Made by a program: the position numbers and the translations under genes. Below, one piece after another: positions 4,980-60,186 of a stretch of 64,000 nucleotides of DNA (positions are counted from its first letter, which is position 1; every line of letters begins with the position of its first letter). The notes under the pieces were generated by a model that saw nothing but the letters and a program-made list of their open reading frames with translations, was not told the DNA's origin and searched no databases. The stretch is from positions 205,007 to 269,006 of the forward strand of contig DAIDJL010000002.1 of NCBI GenBank assembly GCA_027450205.1, given 5' to 3'. This stretch comes from Candidatus Parcubacteria bacterium (GTDB taxonomy: Bacteria; Patescibacteriota; Minisyncoccia; UBA6257; 2-01-FULL-56-20).

Positions 4980-5008
4980 TTGACAGTCAGTCCATTTTCA
5001 TTTAAAAT
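4980..5008 (+). promoter_or_regulatory. sigma70-type promoter (TTGACA-17-TAAAAT)
   Basis: TTGACA 4980-4985, 17 nt spacer, TAAAAT 5003-5008. Predicted TSS about 5016, right at the start of the long stem. Confidence 0.5.
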
Positions 5009-5016
5009 CTGTTCCT

Positions 5017-5140
5017 GAGCTTAGAAGCTCAATCTTGTGCCCGGCAGGGGGGACGATCCCCTTTTCCATAGTTCAAGGCTATGTGTCCTACCCACCGTAG
5101 ACGAGCCGGGCATAAGATTGAGTTTCTAAGCTCTTTTTTG
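5017..5140 (+). ncRNA. candidate small structured RNA (29-bp closing stem, three internal hairpins, U-tract end); alternatively a MITE-like element
   Basis: Arms 5017-5045 and 5105-5133 are reverse complements with two C-to-T changes that give G.U pairs. Inner hairpins ggggg/cccc and catag/ctatg. T6 at 5134-5139. No ORF. Confidence 0.35.
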
Positions 5141-5469
5141 ATATTCTTAGGGAAGTATACCATAAAATTCTAGCAAGTAATACCCCCAGAGATTTACCCT
5201 ATCTGATAATATCAAATGGTATCCGCTTGTCAAATGTCTGTTTTCTCACAGCATTTTGCTATGCAAATTGAATATGTGTCTAAGATACGATAAGTTTACT
5301 GCTTTATATTTTAAACATCTGTTCAATTTAATTCGGCGTTTATTCTTCAAATTCACGTGTTAATTTCCGAGTTCTTCCCCGCCTTTGTGCAATCTATCAT
5401 TTCAACCAGCGGACAGGGCAGAGACGGGTATAGGCGAAAAGAACCGCAGATTCACGTTTTATGCGGGGA

Positions 5470-10790: not shown

Positions 10791-12551
10791 TTATCGCGCC
10801 GCGCGCAACGCGTTGAAGATCACCGCCACATCGATGCATTCCTGCAAAATAGCTCCGGTGACCGGAGGAATATAGCCGAGCGCCGCAAACATCATGCCAA
10901 CAACAGAAAGTCCGATGCCCCATATTATGCTTTCCTTCGCGATGCGCGTGGAGTCGTTCGCGATAAGAAGGATGGAGCGTACCCGCTCGATATCATGGCT
11001 GAGGATCGCGACCGATGCCGCTTCTATGGAGGCGCTGTTCTCGGTGCCGGAGAAAACTACGCCAACATCAGCGAGCGCGAGCGCGGGTGCGTCGTTCAAT
11101 CCGTCGCCGACCATCATCACCTTCCCCCCTCCGGCCTGTGCGGCTTTCACGATCGCAAACTTGTCTTCCGGGAGGCAGTGCGCGTGGATCGTTACGCCGA
11201 GATCTCCGAAAAGCCGCTCCGCATTCTCTTCTGAGTCGCCGGTAAGGATGGCGACCTTATAATATTTTTTTAATTGTTCGAGCAGCTTCGCGGTGCCGCC
11301 TTTTATTTGATCATCAAAGATGAGCCGCCCTGCGAGCGCGGCACCGGCGTACACATCGACAGCGATGCCATCAGCTGCCCTGGTACCCCTGGATTTTTCG
11401 ATGTGAAACACCGTGCCGTTGACCGTACCCGTGATGCCGTCACCGATCTTTTCAATGACGTCCGTTGCGGCATAGCTCGCCATGGCTTCGGAAAGGCCGC
11501 GTGCAGCCCTAGCCTGGACGACGGCCTTTGCGAGCGGGTGCAGGGAATGCAGTTCGATCGCCGCCGCCGCCGCGATGATCGCTTCTTCGGAAAATCCCTG
11601 TGCGAGATCTCTCACTTCCCGCAGGCGAGGCTCGCCGAGCGTGAGCGTCCCGGTCTTATCAAAAAAGATGGTCGTGATCTCGGAAAGCGTCTCGAGCGCT
11701 GCGGGCTTCTTTACCACGATATTTTTTCTTGACGCTTTATTGAGCCCGCCAAGGAAGCTTACCGGCGCGGCGATGAGCAGCGGACATGGCGTCGCCATCA
11801 CGAGCACGCCGAGCAGATTGCTCCACTGATGCGAAAAAAGATATGCGCCGGCGGCGAGCAAGAGTGTGATCGCCGTGAAGCCATAGTTGTAGCGCTCTGC
11901 CAGGCGTACGGTCCGCGCCGGATGTGCTTTCGCCTCTTGTACCAACCCCACGATCTTTTGGTATGTGGAATGCGAAAAATCCCCGACCACGCGCAATTCG
12001 ACGGATGATCCAAGATTGATGAGCCCGCTTTTTACGAGTCGGCCCTTTTGGTATTCTTGCGGTTCCAGCTCTCCCGTGAGGTTCGCTTCGTTCATCAGTG
12101 CGTGTTCGGAGGCAAGATATCCATCGAGCGGAACGATCTCCTCTGGCCGGATGAAGATAATATCACCCTCTTTTATATCGCGGATGCCGCGCGTTTCAAA
12201 TGTGCCGCTATCGGTCTTTACCTGGCAGGCCTTGGGTATCTTCTCGACGAAATTTTTGAGCGCGGCCTCCGCCTCGCGCGAACTGTATGCCTCAAGCGCC
12301 TCGCTTACGAGGATCATAATGGAGACGACCGCTCCGGCGATAAGCTCGTTCGTTGCGAGCGAGACTACCATTGCGAGGATGGCGATGTAGTCCAGCGAAT
12401 ACTGCCGCTGCCACATCTTTTTTACGGAATTATGTACGAGCACAAAAAGACCGATGCCGATCGCGGCAATAAAAAACAGGGAACGAAGTCCCGTTGCAAA
12501 TCCCGCGATGGTGAGCAGGAAGACGAATGAAGGGAGATAAAATTCCGCCAT
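10791..12551 (-). CDS. P1B-type heavy-metal ATPase with TPCP transmembrane motif (P1B-5-like), no N-terminal metal-binding domain
   Basis: DKTGTLT phosphorylation site, ATPCPLL in TM6, GDGLND hinge, about 8 TM helices; 586 aa. Confidence 0.8.
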   Translation of the reverse strand: MAEFYLPSFVFLLTIAGFATGLRSLFFIAAIGIGLFVLVHNSVKKMWQRQYSLDYIAILAMVVSLATNELIAGAVVSIMILVSEALEAYSSREAEAALKNFVEKIPKACQVKTDSGTFETRGIRDIKEGDIIFIRPEEIVPLDGYLASEHALMNEANLTGELEPQEYQKGRLVKSGLINLGSSVELRVVGDFSHSTYQKIVGLVQEAKAHPARTVRLAERYNYGFTAITLLLAAGAYLFSHQWSNLLGVLVMATPCPLLIAAPVSFLGGLNKASRKNIVVKKPAALETLSEITTIFFDKTGTLTLGEPRLREVRDLAQGFSEEAIIAAAAAIELHSLHPLAKAVVQARAARGLSEAMASYAATDVIEKIGDGITGTVNGTVFHIEKSRGTRAADGIAVDVYAGAALAGRLIFDDQIKGGTAKLLEQLKKYYKVAILTGDSEENAERLFGDLGVTIHAHCLPEDKFAIVKAAQAGGGKVMMVGDGLNDAPALALADVGVVFSGTENSASIEAASVAILSHDIERVRSILLIANDSTRIAKESIIWGIGLSVVGMMFAALGYIPPVTGAILQECIDVAVIFNALRAAR

Positions 12552-12618: not shown

Positions 12619-13167
12619 ATGAACAAAAAAAGATGGGCGGGCGCGGCGGCGGTGCTTGCGGTCGGTATTGGCGCGTATGTTCTTTTTGGAATGCACCGAC
12701 AGGCCAATGCGCCAACCATTGCGGCATTCGATCCGCTTGGCGCGACATATACGATCGACGGGCAGCCGGTCGCCCTGGCCAATGGCAGGTCGCAGGTGCC
12801 AGCTGCGCCGGGATCCGCGACGCAGGTGACAACCGTGGTATTCGGACAGCCCGCGGTCGGCGATCTGAATGGCGACGGAAGAGCCGATGCCGCTGTCATC
12901 CTCCAGCAGGACTCCGGTGGGAGCGGAACGTTCTATTATGCCGCTGTCGCCATCAACACTGCGGCGGGCGCGCGGGGATCGAATGCTATCCTCCTTGGCG
13001 ACCGCATTGCTCCTCAGAATATTTCCATTCAGAATGGGCGGGTCGTCGTGAATTACGCCGAGCGTAATCCCGGAGAACCAATGACCACGCCGCCCTCGCT
13101 TGGCGTGACAAAATATCTTATCTATCAAAATTCGGCGCTCGTGGAAGCCTCTTCGTCGGGCCAATAA
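12619..13167 (+). CDS. secreted hypothetical protein
   Basis: Signal peptide MNKKRWAGAAAVLAVGIGAYVLFG; 182 aa. Confidence 0.5.
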   Translation: MNKKRWAGAAAVLAVGIGAYVLFGMHRQANAPTIAAFDPLGATYTIDGQPVALANGRSQVPAAPGSATQVTTVVFGQPAVGDLNGDGRADAAVILQQDSGGSGTFYYAAVAINTAAGARGSNAILLGDRIAPQNISIQNGRVVVNYAERNPGEPMTTPPSLGVTKYLIYQNSALVEASSSGQ

Positions 13168-44631: not shown

Positions 44632-45903
44632 CTACCCTTCAAAAGCCTTTTTTAATATAGAGAAGACCACGAGTGCTGTAAATGCGATCACGGCAGCAAG
44701 CGCAAAAGCGTAGGACGGATCGATCGTCCACAGCCGTCCGGCAATGACGGATGCGGGCAGGTAGATAAGCCCGGTGACGAAGTTATAGAGGCCAATCGCC
44801 GAACCGCGTCGCGTGGGCTCCAAATCGGCAATGAACGCCTTGCTTTGTGCCTCATCGATGGCGTAGAACACGCCGAAGACGATAAAGAGGACGATAATCT
44901 CCCACTTGGCGAACGCGAACATGAACCCGGATGCCATTACGGCGTAGATGAGATAGCTCAGCATGATGACCCACGTGCGACCGATCCGATCGCCAAGCCT
45001 TCCCATTGGAATCGAAGCAATAACGAACGCGACATTGAACAGCGCATACAGAAGGATGACGTCCGCCACGGAAAAGCCGACAAGGTATGCTTTGAGGAGC
45101 AGGAATCCGAAGCTGAAATAGGCAAGCGAAAAGATGCTCGCGGGCACAAGATACCGCTTGAACGAGGGCGATAGCATCTTCCATGACACGAACATATTTT
45201 CTCGCTCATGCGGCGGGCCGGGGCGCTCTTTCATCACAAGGAGCACGACGACCGCGAGCGTGGCCACGATCGCCGCTCCGATAAAGAGAATATGGAAGCT
45301 ATGAAGGCTCTGCCCAAGCCAGGCAAAAAGAGCGAACGCCAAGAGCGGCCCCGCCACGGCGCCTGCCTTGTCCATCGCTTTATGCACACCGAACGAATAC
45401 CCGCGATCCGCTTCAGATGCAACTTCGGCAAGCCACGCATCCCGCGGCGGCCCGCGGAAGCTTTTCCCGAGGCGCTCGACGATGCGGAAGAGCGCGAGCG
45501 ACGATATCGAATTCGCCACGACGAGAAAGAATTTCGCGAGCGTGGAGAACCCATACCCCACGGCCGCAAGTGATTTTCGCTTGCCGCTGTGGTCGGATAG
45601 CCATCCCGAAAGATAATCGAGGGATGACGCCGAAAAATCCGCAAGTCCCTCCACGAGGCCGAGCAATGCTGCCGAGGCACCGGCGAATACAGTGAAGAAC
45701 ACCGCGAATACCGAAAATATTGCCTCCGAGCTCACGTCAGTGAGAAAACTCACGAGCCCGAGCCGTATCACGTCTGGATGAACCCCGAAACGGTGGCTAC
45801 CTTCATTCGTAGGCATATCGTCAATTATATCCGAGATTAATCGGTTGGGTATGCAAGCGGGTCGAGGTTGGAAATATAAGGCTCCAGTTGCCTTTTTGCG
45901 CAC
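44632..45903 (-). CDS. MFS transporter
   Basis: 12 TM; GRLGDRIGR (MFS loop 2-3 signature); 423 aa (start may be 45816). Confidence 0.8.
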   Translation of the reverse strand: MRKKATGALYFQPRPACIPNRLISDIIDDMPTNEGSHRFGVHPDVIRLGLVSFLTDVSSEAIFSVFAVFFTVFAGASAALLGLVEGLADFSASSLDYLSGWLSDHSGKRKSLAAVGYGFSTLAKFFLVVANSISSLALFRIVERLGKSFRGPPRDAWLAEVASEADRGYSFGVHKAMDKAGAVAGPLLAFALFAWLGQSLHSFHILFIGAAIVATLAVVVLLVMKERPGPPHERENMFVSWKMLSPSFKRYLVPASIFSLAYFSFGFLLLKAYLVGFSVADVILLYALFNVAFVIASIPMGRLGDRIGRTWVIMLSYLIYAVMASGFMFAFAKWEIIVLFIVFGVFYAIDEAQSKAFIADLEPTRRGSAIGLYNFVTGLIYLPASVIAGRLWTIDPSYAFALAAVIAFTALVVFSILKKAFEG

Positions 45904-46195
45904 GCAGGCGCTACACTTAACCCATAACTGAATATGATGGGGCGCAAGCCTCGGAGCCTAAACCTTCACCGGCATGGCTCATAAGACTCAAACCAGAATA
46001 CTGAACCCCGCGTTCAGCAACTCTGGTTTGAGCCGTACTGGGAAACTGGTACGGGACCGAAAGGTCTAGCTGACACGGGGTTCAGTGTTATTTCTTTCCG
46101 TGTCGGCTATCAAAGGCCGGCATTTTTGTTTATCAATTCGTGATCAAAATCAATCACAGAAAGAAAATTAAGGAGGATAGAAAATAACCAATACT

Positions 46196-47191
46196 ATGGC
46201 AAAAAGTAAAAATAAAAAGATTCCCGGGTGGGCATGGGCTGTCTCCGGCCTTCTTGTCGGCATTGTGGGTGCATGGATCGCGGTCGAATACACGGTTGCA
46301 ATAAACCAACCGACGAATAGCGGACAACCGATTACGGCGCCACAACCGGCTCAGAACCAGGCGGCCGTGCAGCAACAGCAAGCCCAACAGCAAATATCAC
46401 AGCAGGAGATCGCAAATCTCAAGACGGAGAATGCGCAGGCACAGACGACCTTGGCACAACAACAGGCCGAAATTGCGAAGCAGCAAGAGCTTTCGCAGCT
46501 CTTTACTATCGGCAACACGCTCCAGGACTATTACAACAAAATCCGTGATGCACAGAATCTCGGATCGGCATCATGTTCTTATGGGTCCCAGTGCGAAGTG
46601 AATTTCTGGGCAGTCTTGGCGAATAACATCAACAGTGGCACAAGCTATGAGGGAACGTACAACTCGCTCACTAACCAGGGTAATTCCGGCATGTACAGCG
46701 ATGCCGCGATGGCTGCGGGGAAGCAGCTCGATACCCTCGTATTCGCCCCGTATGCGGCTGATGTCATCTCAACGGATTCCGATGCGGTGAAGATCAAGAA
46801 AATCCTCGATTTCATCGATGCAAACCTCACCTATGAGCGTGACATGCAGGAAACGCCGCGGGCACCTGCCGAAACGCTCGGGCTAAGATCGGGGGACTGC
46901 AAGAGCTATTCAATTCTTGCGAGCGCGGCATTCTCGGTCGCCGGAGTACACTCGGCTGTTATGCAGGTGGAAAACGCAAGTGGGACGCTCGGCCATGCGA
47001 TGGTGCTTGTGCAGTCAAGCGAGAACTTACCACTTTCCGAATCATATTCTGATTTGACCTCGGTTGGCCTTCCTGCTGGGAGATGGTGGGTCATCGAGCC
47101 ACAGTACACCTATGAGGAGCAACAGCAGCACCCGGACTGGTTCTCGCAGTGGAAACTGGTACACGCCGCGCAGGTGGCGCTCAGGGGATAA
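46196..47191 (+). CDS. secreted Gln-rich protein with transglutaminase-like Cys-protease core
   Basis: Signal anchor, QQQ-rich coiled coil, then GDCKSYSILASAAF...GHAMV (Cys/His). Confidence 0.55.
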   Translation: MAKSKNKKIPGWAWAVSGLLVGIVGAWIAVEYTVAINQPTNSGQPITAPQPAQNQAAVQQQQAQQQISQQEIANLKTENAQAQTTLAQQQAEIAKQQELSQLFTIGNTLQDYYNKIRDAQNLGSASCSYGSQCEVNFWAVLANNINSGTSYEGTYNSLTNQGNSGMYSDAAMAAGKQLDTLVFAPYAADVISTDSDAVKIKKILDFIDANLTYERDMQETPRAPAETLGLRSGDCKSYSILASAAFSVAGVHSAVMQVENASGTLGHAMVLVQSSENLPLSESYSDLTSVGLPAGRWWVIEPQYTYEEQQQHPDWFSQWKLVHAAQVALRG

Positions 47192-47734: not shown

Positions 47735-50700
47735 GTGAGCATGAACGGCGATTTACAACCAAACACACAAGGGTTACCGGATGGGTTTAAGCGGGACGAT
47801 CATCAGGACTCAATTTATGAGCGCCTTAGGCGACTAGTAGGCCCCGGCCCTGCCGATTTTTACAATGACGCATGTAGGCATTTCGCTACCCAACCGCCTT
47901 TTTCCAGCGCCACCCACCTTATCGGGCATCTTATGCGCGAAATCGAAAGCGCCCTGCGAGATGTCTTAGAGCCGCTCGCCGATTCCACAAAATTGGCGGC
48001 GATCGATAAAAATAAAAAACACGACGGCACCATCAGGGTCATCTTGGACGCGCTCGGCATTCCCGAGTCAGATCCGATTGCGAAGGCCTGGCTGAGCATG
48101 GCCGGCGACGACGGATTGTACAGTCGGGCTCATCGGAATAATCTCGAGGCCGCGCGGCCGCTCGACGATGAATTTGTTGAATTTTGGGCGCAGTTCGAAT
48201 CGGTGTTGTCTGCGGTGCTCGACAAATTCGAGGGTCAGTATACAAAAGTATTCGAGACGATCGATGTTCTTGCGAAAAGATCGAATCCTACCGAGGGAGA
48301 TGCCAAGCTTTTCCTGTTGCATATCCCTAACGATTTCCTTTCCCGCACCCGTCTCTTCGATCAGATGATTGATCCCGGATGGCTGCCTTTATTGAAGGGG
48401 AAAGGGGTGTTCGATGAGGTGCCACGTCCAGAGCAGAATTTCGAAGAGCGTACCACGCGCTACTTGCCATGGCCGCCCGTGAATTACCTGATCAAAATGG
48501 CTCCACTGGATGGAAAGGCGGTGGCGGCCATCCTGCTTGCAGTGAAAGACAACGACAATGCCATAGCAAAAGGCAACCTTCTGACGATCGCTGCCAACCT
48601 TCCGAAAGAACAAAGGGAATCCATTCTGGAGAAGGCAAAGGAGTGGATGAAAACGCATCATCCGTTTTATGTAGTCGACGCAGCGAAGAAACTTGCCGGG
48701 CAATTTGCGGATGATGGGCAAACCGATTCAGCTCTCGAAATTGCGAGCACCCTCCTGGAAATTCTGCCCGATCCAAGATCGCAAGCCGGTGAGGAAAATA
48801 AGGCAGCATGGTTTTCTCCCGATCCCCAGACCCGCCTCGATGACTGGCAGTACGGAGAATTTTTGAAAAGGGATTTTCAGAAGATTGTTGCACTCGATCC
48901 GCAAAAAGCCTACGACCTCACGGCTCGGCTATTGTTGGATTTTGTGAACCTGAAGACAGGCCACTATCCCGATCACAATTTCGATGATGCGATGCACATC
49001 TCGTGCCCGTCTATCGGTGGAGGCGACGATCAGCGCGACTTCGATCGTCTGGAACGCATCTTGGTCCATGCGGTGCGCAGTACCGCAGAGGCCGTCGTGC
49101 AAAAAAATCCAGAGAAATTCCCCGCGGTAATTTCCGATTTGGAAGGCAAAAAATGGACCATCTTCCGGCGCATCGCCCTCTATATCCTGAGCGAAGCTCC
49201 TGATTCCATGCGAGATCTCATCGCGCAGCACCTCACGGACGATGCACTCTTTAATGATTCATCCTTTAGAGCAGAATACAAACTGCTTGCCGAGAAGAGG
49301 TTCCCATTGCTGACAAAAGAAGAGCAAGGCCTTATTTTCGGGTGGATCGAAAAAGCCGAACGGCCGAAGGAGATGATCGCGGCAGATAAAAACGAGTTCA
49401 CGCCGAAGCAGGCCGAAGATTATGTGAGACGGTGGCAACGAAATAAGCTCGATTATCTGGAAGGGCATCTTAACGACGATCTGAAGGAGCGCTACGCGAC
49501 GCTGCTGGCTACTCAGCCAGACCCCCCGGACGGCACCATCACCGAATGGTATGGTCCGACGAGCAGCCTGAACGCCCAGCAGTTGATCACTATGGATTCG
49601 TCCGCTATCATCGAGCACCTGAAGGCATGGGAACCGAAAAACGAGCATTTCGGTTTTGGTCCGACCAAAGAGGGGCTGGGCCGTGAAATTGTGTCTGCAA
49701 TCAAGCTGAAGCCGGAATTGTTCCGGGATCTCGCCGATGAATTTAAGGGGCTAGATCCGACCTATATCCGCTCTTACATCTCGGGATTTGAAGAGGTTGC
49801 CCGGAAAGGGACGGCGCTTGATTGGCCTGCAATGTTCTCGCTCATCCAGTGGGTTATGGATCAGCCGCGGGAGATGCCGGGCAGGAGGGGCGGCGATATG
49901 GATCAGGACCCCGACTGGGGATGGACGAGGAAAGCCATCGCTTCGCTTTTCACGCATGCGGCCAATGCGAACCAAATCCCATTCGAGATGAGAAAGCAGT
50001 TTTGGAAAGCGTTGGAGCCGCTTACCGACGATACGGATCCGACTCCAGGCAAGGAAAAAATCGATGAGAATTCATTTGCAAATGATGCCTACGGATGGAC
50101 GATCAACACAACCAGAGGGGAAGCGATGAGTGCACTGATCGAGTATGCATTGTGGGTATACCGCAACACGGAAAAACTCCCCAACGGGAAAGAGGAAATC
50201 AAAAAAGGATTCGGCATTATGCCCGAAGTGAAAGAAGTTCTAGAAAAACACCTCGATCCGAAGGTCGATCCTTCCATCGGAGTGCGTGCCGTCTATGGAA
50301 GGTTCTTGCCGTGGCTCATATTCATGGACGAACCCTGGGTCATTAAGAACCTCGAGAACATCTTCCATCGGGGTGAATTCGGCGAACCTCTTTACGCCGC
50401 CGCATGGGATACCTACATGATGCATGTCCCAGGCGCATACAATCGCCCTTTCGAAGTGCTGCAAGATCAGTACAAAGAAGCGGTGAGGAATCTCGGCAAG
50501 GTAAAAAGGAAACAGGGTCGGTTTACTGACCGCGATGAACGCGTCGCCGAACAATTAATGATCTTCTTTTGGCGCGACAAAGTTAAGCTGAGCGACAACC
50601 TTTTCAAGTCCTTTTGGGAGAATGCCGATGCCTCTCTCCGCGGTCATGCGATTAGCTTCGTCGGACGGAGCATCAAGAATATTGAAGATGTTCCGCCACC

Positions 50701-51139
50701 CGAGGTCATCGTCGCCCTAAAGGGACTCTGGCAGAACCGCATTGACGCACTCGCGAAAGCGGACGACAAAAAGCAATTCGCCGAAGAAATGGCTGCATTT
50801 GGCTGGTGGTTCGCATCGGGGAAGTTCGACGACGAATGGAGCGCGGCCCAGTATTTGGCCGCTCTCGACATCGGGACGAAATTCCAATCCGATCACTTCG
50901 TGCTGCAACGTCTTGTGGAATTGGTAAAAACAATGCCATTTGAAGCGGTGCGGATTTTGACCAAGCTGCTTTTGGCCAAGGATCAGGCGCAATGGAGGGT
51001 GGCAGGGAATAAAAATGAAATCACGCAAATCCTTTTGGCGGGGTTAGGCAGTGCAGATTCAACCGCTCAAAATGAAGCACGGGATTTGATCAATCGATTG
51101 GTGGCAAGAGGATACGACGATTTTCAGGCATTACTTTAA
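47735..51139 (+). CDS. large (1134 aa) cytoplasmic alpha-helical repeat protein of unknown function
   Basis: Uninterrupted ORF, no signal peptide, no P-loop recognised by eye; immediately followed by a protease gene. Confidence 0.7.
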   Translation: MSMNGDLQPNTQGLPDGFKRDDHQDSIYERLRRLVGPGPADFYNDACRHFATQPPFSSATHLIGHLMREIESALRDVLEPLADSTKLAAIDKNKKHDGTIRVILDALGIPESDPIAKAWLSMAGDDGLYSRAHRNNLEAARPLDDEFVEFWAQFESVLSAVLDKFEGQYTKVFETIDVLAKRSNPTEGDAKLFLLHIPNDFLSRTRLFDQMIDPGWLPLLKGKGVFDEVPRPEQNFEERTTRYLPWPPVNYLIKMAPLDGKAVAAILLAVKDNDNAIAKGNLLTIAANLPKEQRESILEKAKEWMKTHHPFYVVDAAKKLAGQFADDGQTDSALEIASTLLEILPDPRSQAGEENKAAWFSPDPQTRLDDWQYGEFLKRDFQKIVALDPQKAYDLTARLLLDFVNLKTGHYPDHNFDDAMHISCPSIGGGDDQRDFDRLERILVHAVRSTAEAVVQKNPEKFPAVISDLEGKKWTIFRRIALYILSEAPDSMRDLIAQHLTDDALFNDSSFRAEYKLLAEKRFPLLTKEEQGLIFGWIEKAERPKEMIAADKNEFTPKQAEDYVRRWQRNKLDYLEGHLNDDLKERYATLLATQPDPPDGTITEWYGPTSSLNAQQLITMDSSAIIEHLKAWEPKNEHFGFGPTKEGLGREIVSAIKLKPELFRDLADEFKGLDPTYIRSYISGFEEVARKGTALDWPAMFSLIQWVMDQPREMPGRRGGDMDQDPDWGWTRKAIASLFTHAANANQIPFEMRKQFWKALEPLTDDTDPTPGKEKIDENSFANDAYGWTINTTRGEAMSALIEYALWVYRNTEKLPNGKEEIKKGFGIMPEVKEVLEKHLDPKVDPSIGVRAVYGRFLPWLIFMDEPWVIKNLENIFHRGEFGEPLYAAAWDTYMMHVPGAYNRPFEVLQDQYKEAVRNLGKVKRKQGRFTDRDERVAEQLMIFFWRDKVKLSDNLFKSFWENADASLRGHAISFVGRSIKNIEDVPPPEVIVALKGLWQNRIDALAKADDKKQFAEEMAAFGWWFASGKFDDEWSAAQYLAALDIGTKFQSDHFVLQRLVELVKTMPFEAVRILTKLLLAKDQAQWRVAGNKNEITQILLAGLGSADSTAQNEARDLINRLVARGYDDFQALL

Positions 51140-54653: not shown

Positions 54654-56252
54654 ATGGAAAAATCAGCAGAGAAAATTAAATACTTCATGTACGCTCGCAA
54701 ATCGTCCGAGAGCGAGGATCGGCAGATGGCGTCTATCGAATCCCAGATTGACGAGCTGAAAAAGCTTGCCAAAGAAAACAATCTCGAGATCGTCGAGGTG
54801 TTTTCCGAATCAAAGTCGGCGAAAGCGCCGGGTCGCACGGAGTTCAGGAAAATGATCGAGCGCATTCAGGAAGGTGAAGTACAAGGTGTCATCTGCTGGA
54901 AGCTGAACCGGCTGGCGAGGAATCCTGTTGATGGCGGGGAAATCAGCTGGCTGCTTCAGCAGAGTGTCATCAAGCACATCCAGACGTATGGGCGGAGCTA
55001 TTACCCGACCGATAACGTCTTAATGATGAGCGTGGAGTTCGGCATGGCGAACCAATTTGTGAAGGACTTGAGCGTGGATACGAAGCGCGGCATGCGGGCA
55101 AAGGCGGAGCGAGGATGGTGTCCCGGTCCGGCTCCCGTCGGATATCTCCATAATCCCATTAAGAAACAGGGCGAAAAGGAGGTTCTTTCCGATGAAAAGC
55201 GTTTTGGCATCGTCTCAAAATGCTGGGCGATGATGCTCATGGGAGCGCATACGGTGCCACAGGTGTGGGAGGTTGCGGTGAACCGGTGGGGCCTTACCGG
55301 TCGCATGGGGAAGAAGCTCAGTTTGAGCAACATGTATGCTTTGTTTGCTAATCCCTTCTATTGCGGAGAGTTTGAGTATCCTCTTGGAAGCGGTATCTGG
55401 CATCAGGGGAAGCACGAGCCGATGATTACCCGGAAAGAATTCGAGCGCGTGCAGACCATTATGGGCTGGGGCAACAAGTCACGGCGGAAGACGCATGACA
55501 TTTCCATGCGCGGCCCGATCCTGTGTGGGGAGTGCGGCGCAATGATTACAGCCGAGGAGAAAGTCAAAATCCAAAAGAATGGAAATCGCCATGAATACAC
55601 TTACTACCACTGTACTGGGCGAAAAAACAAGAATTGCTTGCAGAAGCGCATCCGCATTGAAGAGAAGGAGTTAGAGCGACAGGTTAAGGAAATCTTTTCA
55701 AAGGTTGAAATCCCGCAGGAGTTTTATGAGTGGGCCATGGATGTATTACGCGAGTCGAATGAGGCGGAGTCGACAACTCGTGCGAAGATCACCGACAGTC
55801 AGCGGGCAGAATACGATCGTAGCGTGAAGATGATCGACGCCATCATCGATATGCGGGCGCGTGGCGAAATCACCGAGGAAGAGTTTACGCGACGCAAGAC
55901 ATCGCTGCTTACGGAAAAACATCACTTACAAGGGCTTATTAACGATGCCGACAAAGGTGTAGATGATTGGCTCGCAACGGCCGACAAGTATTTCAACTTC
56001 GCGGCGAATGCCAAGCGGAAGTTCGAAAACGGCACATCCGACGAGATCCGGGAGCTACTAACCCTCTTAGGTTCGGACCTCCTCTTAACGCAAGGAAAAC
56101 TCAGTGTTTCCTTGGCCGAACCACTCATCGTGATCGAAAAATTAGCGCCGGGAGCACGACTCATAAATGAGAGGTTTGGACCTGCAAAAAATGCAGAAGA
56201 TATAAAGGAATTAAGAACGTTATACGCTCAAAATTCAACAAGGGGTGCCTAA
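54654..56252 (+). CDS. large serine recombinase (resolvase catalytic domain plus recombinase and zinc-ribbon domains)
   Basis: N-terminal YARKSSESEDRQMASIESQ (catalytic Ser region), recombinase domain, Cys4 CGECG...C..C, C-terminal coiled coil; stop codon lies inside tRNA-His. Confidence 0.85.
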   Translation: MEKSAEKIKYFMYARKSSESEDRQMASIESQIDELKKLAKENNLEIVEVFSESKSAKAPGRTEFRKMIERIQEGEVQGVICWKLNRLARNPVDGGEISWLLQQSVIKHIQTYGRSYYPTDNVLMMSVEFGMANQFVKDLSVDTKRGMRAKAERGWCPGPAPVGYLHNPIKKQGEKEVLSDEKRFGIVSKCWAMMLMGAHTVPQVWEVAVNRWGLTGRMGKKLSLSNMYALFANPFYCGEFEYPLGSGIWHQGKHEPMITRKEFERVQTIMGWGNKSRRKTHDISMRGPILCGECGAMITAEEKVKIQKNGNRHEYTYYHCTGRKNKNCLQKRIRIEEKELERQVKEIFSKVEIPQEFYEWAMDVLRESNEAESTTRAKITDSQRAEYDRSVKMIDAIIDMRARGEITEEEFTRRKTSLLTEKHHLQGLINDADKGVDDWLATADKYFNFAANAKRKFENGTSDEIRELLTLLGSDLLLTQGKLSVSLAEPLIVIEKLAPGARLINERFGPAKNAEDIKELRTLYAQNSTRGA

Positions 56253-56315
56253 CGGGAATCGGACCCGTATTGCCGCTGCCACAGAGCGGAGCTTTACCAT
56301 TAAGCTATAGGCACC
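56244..56315 (-). tRNA. tRNA-His (anticodon GTG) with genomically encoded G-1
   Basis: G-1 plus acceptor GTGCCTA/TAGGCAC, D-arm GCTT-AATGGTA-AAGC, anticodon stem CCGCT/AGCGG with loop CTGTGGC, T-arm ACGGG-TCCGATT-CCCGT, discriminator C. Confidence 0.8.
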
Positions 56316-59254: not shown

Positions 59255-59329
59255 TGGTGCGCGCTGAGGGAGTTGAACCCCCGACCCACTCGGTGTAAAC
59301 GAGTTGCTCTACCGCTGAGCTAAGCGCGC
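59255..59329 (-). tRNA. tRNA-Val (anticodon TAC), CCA encoded
   Basis: Acceptor GCGCGCT/AGCGCGC, anticodon loop TTTACAC, T-loop TTCAACT, 3' ACCA. Confidence 0.8.
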
Positions 59330-59979
59330 CGACGAAAAGAATAGTAGCGAAAATGGGCGCACTTTGCAATCGGCAAGAATTTTTATCCCCAGAAGAGTGT
59401 GGGTTATGCACAGCTTTTTCAGAAATATCATCTATAATGAATTTAGGCATTTTAATTTTTGATCAAACAAGCGGGGAGGCTGAATCATGACCGGTGTTTT
59501 GGTTACTGTGGAATGTGGGGGGAGATGCGGGCACGTTGCGAACATCCCTGGCAGTGCGGCTTGCGACCTGTTTCTCGAGAATGGAAAGAGAGATCCAGAT
59601 CGGCTGGTTCTCTGCGTCGACTGTCAGATATGGTTTGCGACGATGGTGGCTTGGGCCACTCCGAGCAGAATTAGCGAGCCAGTGCCGCTTGCAACGATCG
59701 AAAAATGATTCGCGACGTCTAGGTGGCGTTCGCGGGGCCCCGATTTTTTCGGGGCCTCTTTCTCGGGAAACAGTAACAGGATCGCCTTCTTGGACAATCC
59801 TGTTTTTGATCTGTCGGGCCGCAGGGAATTGGACCCTGTCTACCTGCTCCCAAAGCAGGCGTACTACCGGTATACGACGGCCCGTTATACATCGGCGCAT
59901 CACGCGCCGCACAAGCCTCTTTAAAGTATCCTACTTTTGGTTTAGAATCAATGCGACGAAAGCAATTCGTGCGATCCAT

Positions 59980-60051
59980 GCCCCTGTAGCTCAATGGATA
60001 GAGCAGGTCTCTTCTAAGGACTTGATGTGGGTTCGATTCCTACCGGGGGCA
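59980..60051 (+). tRNA. tRNA-Arg (anticodon TCT)
   Basis: Acceptor GCCCCTG/CGGGGGC (one G.U), D-arm GCTC-AATGGATA-GAGC, anticodon loop CTTCTAA, T-loop TTCGATT. Confidence 0.7.
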
Positions 60052-60071
60052 CAGGAAAAATATTATTAAAT

Positions 60072-60105
60072 AAAAATAGAGCAATGGTCCAGCCATGCTC
60101 TATTT
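60072..60105. terminator. bidirectional terminator hairpin between convergent tRNA genes
   Basis: aaaaatagagca-atggtccagcca-tgctctattttt; A-run on one side and T-run on the other. Confidence 0.55.
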
Positions 60106-60115
60106 TTACAAACTG

Positions 60116-60186
60116 TGCCGCGAGAGAGAATCGAACTCACTTACTCCGCTCTTCAGGCGGATGCTCTACCATTGAGCTATCGCGGC
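60116..60186 (-). tRNA. tRNA-Phe (anticodon GAA)
   Basis: Acceptor GCCGCGA/TCGCGGC, D-arm GCTC-AATGGTA-GAGC, anticodon stem TCCGC/GCGGA with loop CTGAAGA, T-loop TTCGATT, discriminator A. Confidence 0.8.

Follow-up and report, generated by a model that had tools for sequence, protein, structure and literature searches.

In the Mg2+-sensing M-box, the compact fold of the RNA decides whether a terminator forms. Riboswitch and attenuator platforms of this kind are promoter-proximal leaders with two exclusive conserved helices, one of which carries a U-tract. Phage antitermination offers a second set of structured leaders: HK022 put acts as RNA alone, lambda N-nut is protein-bound, and the short transcript of lambda PR′-tR′ works with Q. 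In these three cases, structured RNA stands just past the promoter and ahead of a terminator, in temperate-phage-like elements. Type III toxin-antitoxin loci (ToxIN), which are often found on mobile elements, also follow the order promoter, structured RNA, terminator and protein gene, the terminator being leaky.

LOOT is one of the 224 candidate RNA motifs that Weinberg et al. (2017; PMC5737381) obtained in a single screen. Rfam holds it as a metagenome-based family typed 'Gene; sRNA' (PMC7779021). We found no study of its function in the literature searched. Here, we report on a LOOT copy lying in a stretch of 64,000 nucleotides from a Candidatus Parcubacteria bacterium, hereafter the window, and on its relatives. 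Like the M-box and other riboswitch or attenuator platforms, LOOT appears as a promoter-proximal leader with two exclusive conserved helices, one with a U-tract, and one of the two states is probably favoured by a compact fold that a predicted tertiary contact would brace. It differs from riboswitch platforms, which rely on a local terminator hairpin, in that the strands of its predicted terminator stem lie ~70 nt apart, which is unusual for a terminator, in that its genes are functionally unrelated and in that it has no known ligand. With put, N-nut and PR′-tR′, LOOT shares the order of elements and the temperate-phage-like setting, but neither sequence nor structure; it also has a competing helix of its own, and no partner protein was identified for it. 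Finally, unlike ToxIN, LOOT has no tandem repeats and its downstream proteins belong to no single toxin family.

The LOOT copy of the window and its leader

A scan of the whole window against Rfam with cmscan returned LOOT (RF03000) at 45955-46067 of the + strand as the sole non-tRNA match, with 70.7 bits against a gathering cutoff of 46.4 and E = 2.8e-11. The match spans the full model (positions 1-121), and a permissive scan of 45850-46250 added one chance microRNA match and nothing else. The hairpin cluster is almost certainly a LOOT copy and, the match being full-length, it belongs to an already catalogued motif without known function. For 45950-46135, the fold of the + strand has -77.9 kcal/mol (z = -6.2), which no shuffle out of 200 equalled, and the minus strand is weaker (-69.8 kcal/mol, z = -4.9). 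That the RNA lies on the + strand follows from the agreement of the G-U pairs, the putative promoter and the strand of the Rfam match.

The first-pass annotation of this DNA had described four consecutive stem-loops, and all of them are found in the sequence, with the z-score of the fold and the Rfam match in their favour. Its first three hairpins are part of the Rfam model, while P0 and P1 were overlooked and hairpin 4 lies outside the model. The limits of its first hairpin (45982-46030) were a few bases off those of the actual P2 (45987-46032). The -10 box, the 5′ leader and the terminator with its U-tract were also absent from that account. Of the checks that it proposed, the Rfam/Infernal scan placed LOOT above its cutoff, and the search for covariation showed a structure conserved with compensatory changes among LOOT relatives. 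An intron or ribozyme fragment, another of its suggestions, was not borne out: Rfam yields only LOOT here and no covariance model of that sort matched. A chance cluster of intergenic hairpins, for which the general frequency of hairpins in DNA is the one argument, has a negligible probability and is refuted by the fold z-score, by the E-value and by ~200 homologues with compensatory changes.

All helices of the Rfam model are present in the window copy, in the order P1 (with an internal loop), P1a, P2, P2b, P3 and P4. P1 (45955-45979) contains the internal loop CCUAAAC / GCAUGG and is capped by P1a, which is only 2 bp long with a 6 nt loop and includes one non-standard pair in the Rfam alignment. 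P2 (45987-97 / 46022-32) has 11 bp and encloses P2b (46001-06 / 46012-17, loop CCCGC). P3 (46033-41 / 46046-54) has 9 bp and P4 (46055-58 / 46063-66) has 4 bp, both with a GAAA tetraloop. Conserved LOOT bases are thereby found at 45957-63 (CCUAAAC), 45972-77 (GCAUGG), 46042-45 (P3 GAAA) and 46059-62 (P4 GNRA loop). The window copy thus has the six helices of the family, their order, the CCUAAAC / GCAUGG loop and the GAAA loops; it departs from the family by the P1a cut to 2 bp and by an optional 5-bp hairpin, P0 (GGGGC-GCAA-GCCUC, 45939-45952), which is seen in constrained folds. Small hairpins resembling P0, with GNRA or UUCG loops and other stem sequences, occupy the same place in six relatives. 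Furthermore, the family usually has GGUGGGCUUUUUG after P4, which the window copy lacks; it has instead a 12-bp hairpin, H4 (46067-78 / 46098-109), and a separate intrinsic terminator called by a terminator scan at 46100-46133 (GUGUCGGCU-AUCAAA-GGCCGGCAU, then UUUUGUUUAU). The 5′ leader, the long-range helix described below, the terminator and H4 are all beyond the 121 nt Rfam model.

Upstream of LOOT, we read a putative promoter at 45888-45917 from the sequence, with a -35-like TTGCCT (45888-93), an 18 nt spacer and a -10-like TACACT (45912-17). This -10-like box is weak and a consensus promoter scan did not call it. It is followed at 45924-45934 by the conserved 5′ leader ATAACTGAATA, which corresponds to the family consensus ACAAYTRAATA and is the predicted 5′ end of the RNA; transcription would start at ~45924. 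Across the family, a -10-like hexamer (TATTAT, TATAAT, TATAGT and others) is present upstream in 61 of the 66 recognisable leaders, and in 47 of those 61 it stands 6 nt ahead of the leader, as in the window. ACAAYTRAATA always lies 6-8 nt past the -10 box, and P1 begins 0-11 nt after it. When the conserved leader was checked by eye for pairing with the tail of the RNA, neither covariation nor a partner was found.

The conserved loops of P1 and P3 recall a known tertiary motif. The 11-nt receptor of the GAAA tetraloop has the consensus CCUAAG...UAUGG. Of 101 relatives in a metagenome sample that was selected neither on P1 nor on P3, 100 have GAAA as the loop of P3; in this sample, the P1 loop reads CCUAA[A/C]C...G[C/U]AUGG. 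The LOOT loop (CCUAA-X-C / G-Y-AUGG) and the receptor have in common their flanking C-G pairs, and the exact receptor strand UAUGG is present in ~21 of 95 relatives; where the classic receptor has a G-U pair, LOOT has A:C (66), C:U (21) or C:C (5). The two strands of this loop (window 45959-62 / 45973-75) covary between the non-Watson-Crick combinations A:C and C:U, with no A:U. From this likeness, the P3 GAAA loop may dock on the receptor-like loop of P1 and stabilise the Rfam fold (fold 1). No ligand pocket is evident in LOOT, the tetraloop and the receptor-like motif accounting for most of its conserved bases.

Conserved helices of the LOOT family

Relatives were retrieved from genome, viral-contig and metagenome sets, about 200 in total. 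A pattern scan of species-representative genomes gave at least 120 loci; among the matches listed, 96 genome loci were searched with a covariance model built here, which recognised a full-length LOOT in 86, and another model recovered LOOT from 21 of the 24 remaining ones. A metagenome scan with another pattern, drawn from the a and a′ segments defined below, gave LOOT in 100 of 100 loci among the matches listed. A 15-base pattern was too unspecific, its >120 matches being mostly due to chance. As MAFFT aligned four LOOTs out of structural register, the models were built from near-gapless subsets. Since retrieval relied on exact-match patterns, the samples cover sub-families of LOOT.

In 90 sequences, 95.7% of the cells in the Rfam-fold helices are paired against ~29-41% in slid controls, and 37 of the 41 pairs change on both sides, such pair counts leaning towards the model because the alignments had been fitted to the very models under test. 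Ten of the 11 pairs of P2 covary (95% of cells paired), and so do all 8 modelled pairs of P3; P4 covaries too, and its loop varies over the family (UUCG, GCAA, GAAA).

The first-pass annotation had also noticed that the loop of hairpin 4 is complementary to the inside of the first hairpin. This complementarity is real, longer than described and conserved family-wide. In the window, segment a (45998-46017), which is the top of P2 with P2b and its flanks, pairs over 18 bp with segment a′ (46070-46088, CUGACACGGGGUUCAGUGU), with a duplex energy of -27.9 kcal/mol; this a′ has no U-run of its own. Likewise, ~20 nt at the top of P2 are complementary to ~20 nt after P4 at -18 kcal/mol or lower in 86 of 90 sequences. 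The a and a′ sequences vary between lineages while staying complementary. The family model of a:a′ has 20 pairs, 19 of which show changes in both strands; 93% of its cells are paired, a figure that drops to ~43% with a slid partner. An alignment-free control gave -23.8 kcal/mol for cognate segments, -14.2 for non-cognate and -9.3 for shuffled ones. On the opposite strand, the same segments reach just -16.7 kcal/mol (7 kcal/mol weaker), as many of the pairs are G-U.

The earlier proposal was that this pairing could form a pseudoknot. The conserved and covarying complementarity stands, but a helix of ~20 bp should be incompatible with a closed P2 stem. On geometric grounds, P2 and the full a:a′ should be mutually exclusive, because the ~20 bp helix would have to form in the loop of an 11-bp hairpin with linkers of 0-2 nt. 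Helix a:a′ is thus better read as an alternative, mutually exclusive helix than as a pseudoknot. If this exclusivity holds, the family conserves two exclusive folds. With tertiary contacts left out of the calculation, these two folds have equal mean energies over the family (-59.4 kcal/mol each, median difference -1.1, n = 90). In the window, fold 1 (P2, P2b and H4) is calculated at -86.5 kcal/mol and fold 2 (a:a′ and terminator) at -87.8 kcal/mol.

P2 is also the fastest-evolving part of LOOT, with 58% identity against 83% elsewhere in the RNA. In one MAG, two copies (L228 and L233) are 92% identical outside P2 and 59% inside. The arms of P2 contain almost no G-U pairs, with 4 among 923 paired cells in one sample (0.4%) and 8 among 965 in a second, independent one (0.8%), against 15-16% in P3 and P4. 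Two possible causes of this near-pure Watson-Crick pairing are a correction of the palindrome at the DNA level by template switching and a tuning of the energy of P2 against that of a:a′. No preferential pairing was seen between the P2 strands and their own upstream or downstream flanks.

Carriers, downstream genes and the recombinase island

Among the matches listed, the carriers of LOOT are almost all MAGs of Patescibacteria (Saccharibacteria, Paceibacterota/Parcubacteria, Kaiser-, Nomura-, Doudna-, Levy- and Woesebacteria), and no pattern match in ordinary phyla was confirmed by the covariance model. Full LOOTs also occur on MAG contigs labelled Gammaproteobacteria (four), Bathyarchaeota (one) and Pacearchaeota (one), some of which also have a serine-recombinase context; they are probably mis-binned or mislabelled contigs of Patescibacteria or phages. 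Seven IMG/VR contigs clearly bear LOOT, together with genes for terminase, portal, serine recombinase (a phage-type integrase), ParB and methylases. A BLAST search of the hairpin region against a phage collection gave no match. The organism of the window is itself a Patescibacterium, its SHMT sharing 91-92% identity with proteins named Minisyncoccia or Paceibacterota.

Downstream of LOOT, we found an ORF on the same strand in 82 of the 84 loci whose sequence extended far enough, at a median of 59 nt after P4; in the metagenome replication, this was the case in 69 of 91 loci, at a median of 42 nt after the U-tract, the ORF calls of these surveys being crude. Upstream neighbours are of mixed orientation (50 divergent, 29 co-oriented). 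In the window, the downstream gene codes for a membrane-anchored transglutaminase-like protein of 331 aa (46196-47191, + strand; Pfam DUF553 / Transglut_core), preceded by AAGGAGG at 46171-77. The first-pass annotation had left open for which of the two divergent flanking genes the structure could be a leader; the arrangement in the relatives speaks for the transglutaminase-like gene on the + strand and against the other one. Homologues of this gene at 49-82% identity also have LOOT directly upstream on the same strand, with scores of 74-84 bits in six loci. One homologue, on the contig L125, has no LOOT upstream. Compared with the bacterial model, the 16S rRNA gene of L125 (3879-5762) has two large insertions, one of ~270 nt and one of 41 nt, of a kind reported in Patescibacteria.

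The downstream proteins are heterogeneous, mostly without Pfam match, and share no function. The domains found include tRNA_anti-like, DUF4352, PG_binding_1, transglutaminase-like, trypsin-like, Mrr, Cap15, methylase and DnaJ. A crude test counted an N-terminal hydrophobic segment in 70% of them and in 21% of control ORFs. No conserved partner protein was found beside LOOT among the loci. Toxin-antitoxin and guide-RNA readings were discarded, since the loci share no constant partner gene and what varies in the RNA is a closed helix.

Could LOOT be what its Rfam type says, a stand-alone trans-acting sRNA for which a:a′ is the terminator or 3′-end structure, the downstream gene being expressed independently or by incidental read-through? 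The predicted promoter and U-tract terminator would suit such an RNA, and several copies can be found in one genome beside unrelated genes. The orientation data argue the other way, with a downstream gene co-oriented in 82 of 84 loci and a mixed upstream orientation. Moreover, the start codon lies just ~35-40 nt beyond the U-tract, and with an ORF starting ~35 nt past the U-tract there is little room for a separate promoter, although promoters of leaderless mRNAs could be concealed in this AT-rich stretch. That P2 and a:a′ are both conserved, while exclusive and equal in energy, is more than a simple terminator would need, and in the window a:a′ would be relayed through H4 to a second terminator. 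We therefore regard a free-standing sRNA as unlikely, while holding it to be the most serious alternative to a leader acting in cis.

Of 90 loci, 51 have a large serine recombinase gene within the stretch retrieved around LOOT, and so have 20 of the 39 metagenome loci that reach 6 kb. Among the 51, it is upstream and divergent in 45, whereas in 5, one of which is the window, it lies downstream and on the LOOT strand. In the window, LOOT is followed by the transglutaminase-like gene, a DUF3761 gene, an ORF of 1134 aa (47735-51139, without Pfam match), a trypsin-like gene and, at the far end of the island, the large serine recombinase (54654-56252, + strand; Pfam Resolvase, Recombinase, Zn_ribbon_recom), whose stop codon reaches into the 3′ end of tRNA-His (56242-56314, - strand). 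Homology with the related genome L262 starts exactly at the 3′ end of tRNA-His, which gives the right border of an island of ~10 kb. GC content goes down to 0.47-0.50 at 50-56 kb, and housekeeping genes stand on the far side of the island. The best explanation is that the LOOT of the window leads the first gene of a serine-recombinase island inserted beside tRNA-His, in line with the earlier remark that the hairpins lie at the left edge of a recombinase island, a position typical of the family. A search for an empty site among relatives could fix the right border alone, since synteny is lacking on the flank past tRNA-His; the relatives examined have no LOOT at that place.

In L262, a different gene, of 132 aa, abuts the same tRNA-His, which makes the site look like an integration hot spot. 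Further on, at 59255-60186, the window has four tRNA genes (Val, Pro, Arg, Phe) on mixed strands, and L262 shares the Val, Pro, Arg order. The 1134 aa ORF, the trypsin-like gene and the DUF3761 gene may form a surface or toxin-like cargo module. In L127, one of the loci with a transglutaminase-like homologue, a 2076 aa RHS/YD-repeat protein is encoded two genes downstream of the transglutaminase-like gene.

The position at the island edge, the association with serine recombinases and the near-purely Watson-Crick P2 arms could suggest that LOOT acts as DNA, as an att site of the recombinase or another palindromic site at the island border. An att-site region had indeed been among the first-pass suggestions. 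It is not supported in the window, where no meaningful direct repeats were found over 45.5-56.8 kb, so none with the other island end, and where the P2 arms occur nowhere else. LOOT is moreover intact in integrated elements, P2 is hypervariable and not conserved, and a:a′, P3 and P4 are G-U-rich and work on one strand only. A DNA site is accordingly very improbable.

A candidate two-state switch ahead of cargo genes

In 68 of 90 relatives, a′ is followed by at least four U, and most of the others are U-rich; such a run is missing in 22 of 90, among which is the window. Most relatives have RYGGYGGGCUUUUUG in the a′ region and, given this RYGGYGGGC followed by UUUUUG, a:a′ resembles an intrinsic terminator in which A-tract and U-tract are paired. 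The window has a second architecture. There, a canonical terminator (46100-23) stands ahead of the transglutaminase-like gene and its 5′ arm overlaps the 3′ arm of H4, with which it competes. H4 requires the 5′ part of a′ and is possible only when a′ is unpaired with a. The minimum-free-energy fold of the window copy contains the terminator at 46100-46133 together with a:a′. H4-like hairpins with covarying arms are found in many relatives, and second terminators like that of the window in four, one of which is among the relatives with an H4-like hairpin.

From these elements, we propose that LOOT is a cis-acting leader that works as a two-state transcription attenuator for a cargo gene of mobile elements, a reading that we favour with fair, though far from full, confidence. 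In the window, LOOT would be transcribed rightwards from its own promoter, from ~45924, as the 5′ leader of the transglutaminase-like gene. State 1 would be the Rfam fold, in which P1, P2/P2b, P3 and P4 are formed and which is probably held by docking of the P3 GAAA loop in the receptor-like loop of P1; the closed P2 stem would mark this proposed antiterminator state. In state 2, P2 would open and segment a would pair with the 20 nt past P4. In most relatives, state 2 with its direct U-tract would be an intrinsic terminator (OFF) and state 1 would allow read-through (ON). In the window, a free a′ would form H4 in state 1 and thereby sequester the 5′ arm of the separate terminator (ON), whereas in state 2 H4 would be blocked and the terminator would form (OFF). 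Termination itself, the assignment of ON and OFF and the mechanism are what we infer from the predicted folds. That two architectures follow one logic, in which formation of a:a′ means termination, weighed most in our preference for a cis-regulatory switch.

The first-pass annotation had mentioned a riboswitch. Taken broadly, as a two-state leader, this is possible: the position in a 5′ untranslated region and an exclusive terminator/antiterminator platform are both found computationally. The gene set expected of a metabolite riboswitch is not found, since the downstream genes share no function and no coherent set points to a ligand.

Phage antitermination has also to be weighed. LOOT could be an antitermination site of phages or mobile elements, at which the nascent folded RNA, alone or bound by a protein that the element encodes, either modifies the polymerase or keeps the terminator from acting, which would restrict the expression of cargo or late genes to certain stages. 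LOOT is promoter-proximal with a terminator after it, it is carried by prophage-like contigs with terminase, portal, serine recombinase, ParB and methylase genes, a serine recombinase lies near about half of the loci, and in three contigs LOOT stands ~300 nt upstream of a portal gene. On the other hand, a conserved partner protein was not found beside LOOT, and an action like that of put would need no conserved a:a′. We consider this doubtful, clearly more so than the sRNA; it is also largely a special case of the attenuator, with a protein or the polymerase as effector.

The three portal genes are P22-like, with LOOT ~270-330 nt upstream (L213, ~5000-5300; L223, ~1990-2300; L135, 3835-4100). 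In L213 and L223, the gap before the portal gene contains another promoter-like sequence, TGTGCTATAAT, as well as a GC-rich stretch that may be structured (gcctgacggcgtccgggtttaccgggctaaac). On one metagenome contig (L334), two LOOT copies lie on the same strand 1.3 kb apart (11386-11527 and 12737-12878), and LOOT-led genes can thus stand in a tandem array.

Returning to the attenuator, we can tentatively go one step further, to a proposal that we hold at somewhat less than even confidence. LOOT would represent a new class of cis-acting RNA switch, confined to the mobile elements and prophages that Patescibacteria carry, in which a signal tips the fine balance between antiterminator and long-range terminator and so sets cargo expression. 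The signal could be a small molecule, Mg2+, a host or element protein, or RNA polymerase itself, and the cargo would be such as envelope, exclusion or defence proteins of these ultrasmall epibiotic bacteria.

LOOT has been an orphan since 2017. What our analysis adds is a host range in Patescibacteria and their prophages, a genomic setting, in front of the leading gene of the cargo modules that serine-recombinase elements carry, and a testable mechanism in which two conserved helices compete, one of them a predicted terminator. A few Saccharibacteria are now open to genetic manipulation (PMC10633639). Gene regulation in Patescibacteria is almost unexplored, and a regulatory RNA that is widespread on the mobile elements of these bacteria would offer a useful way into it.
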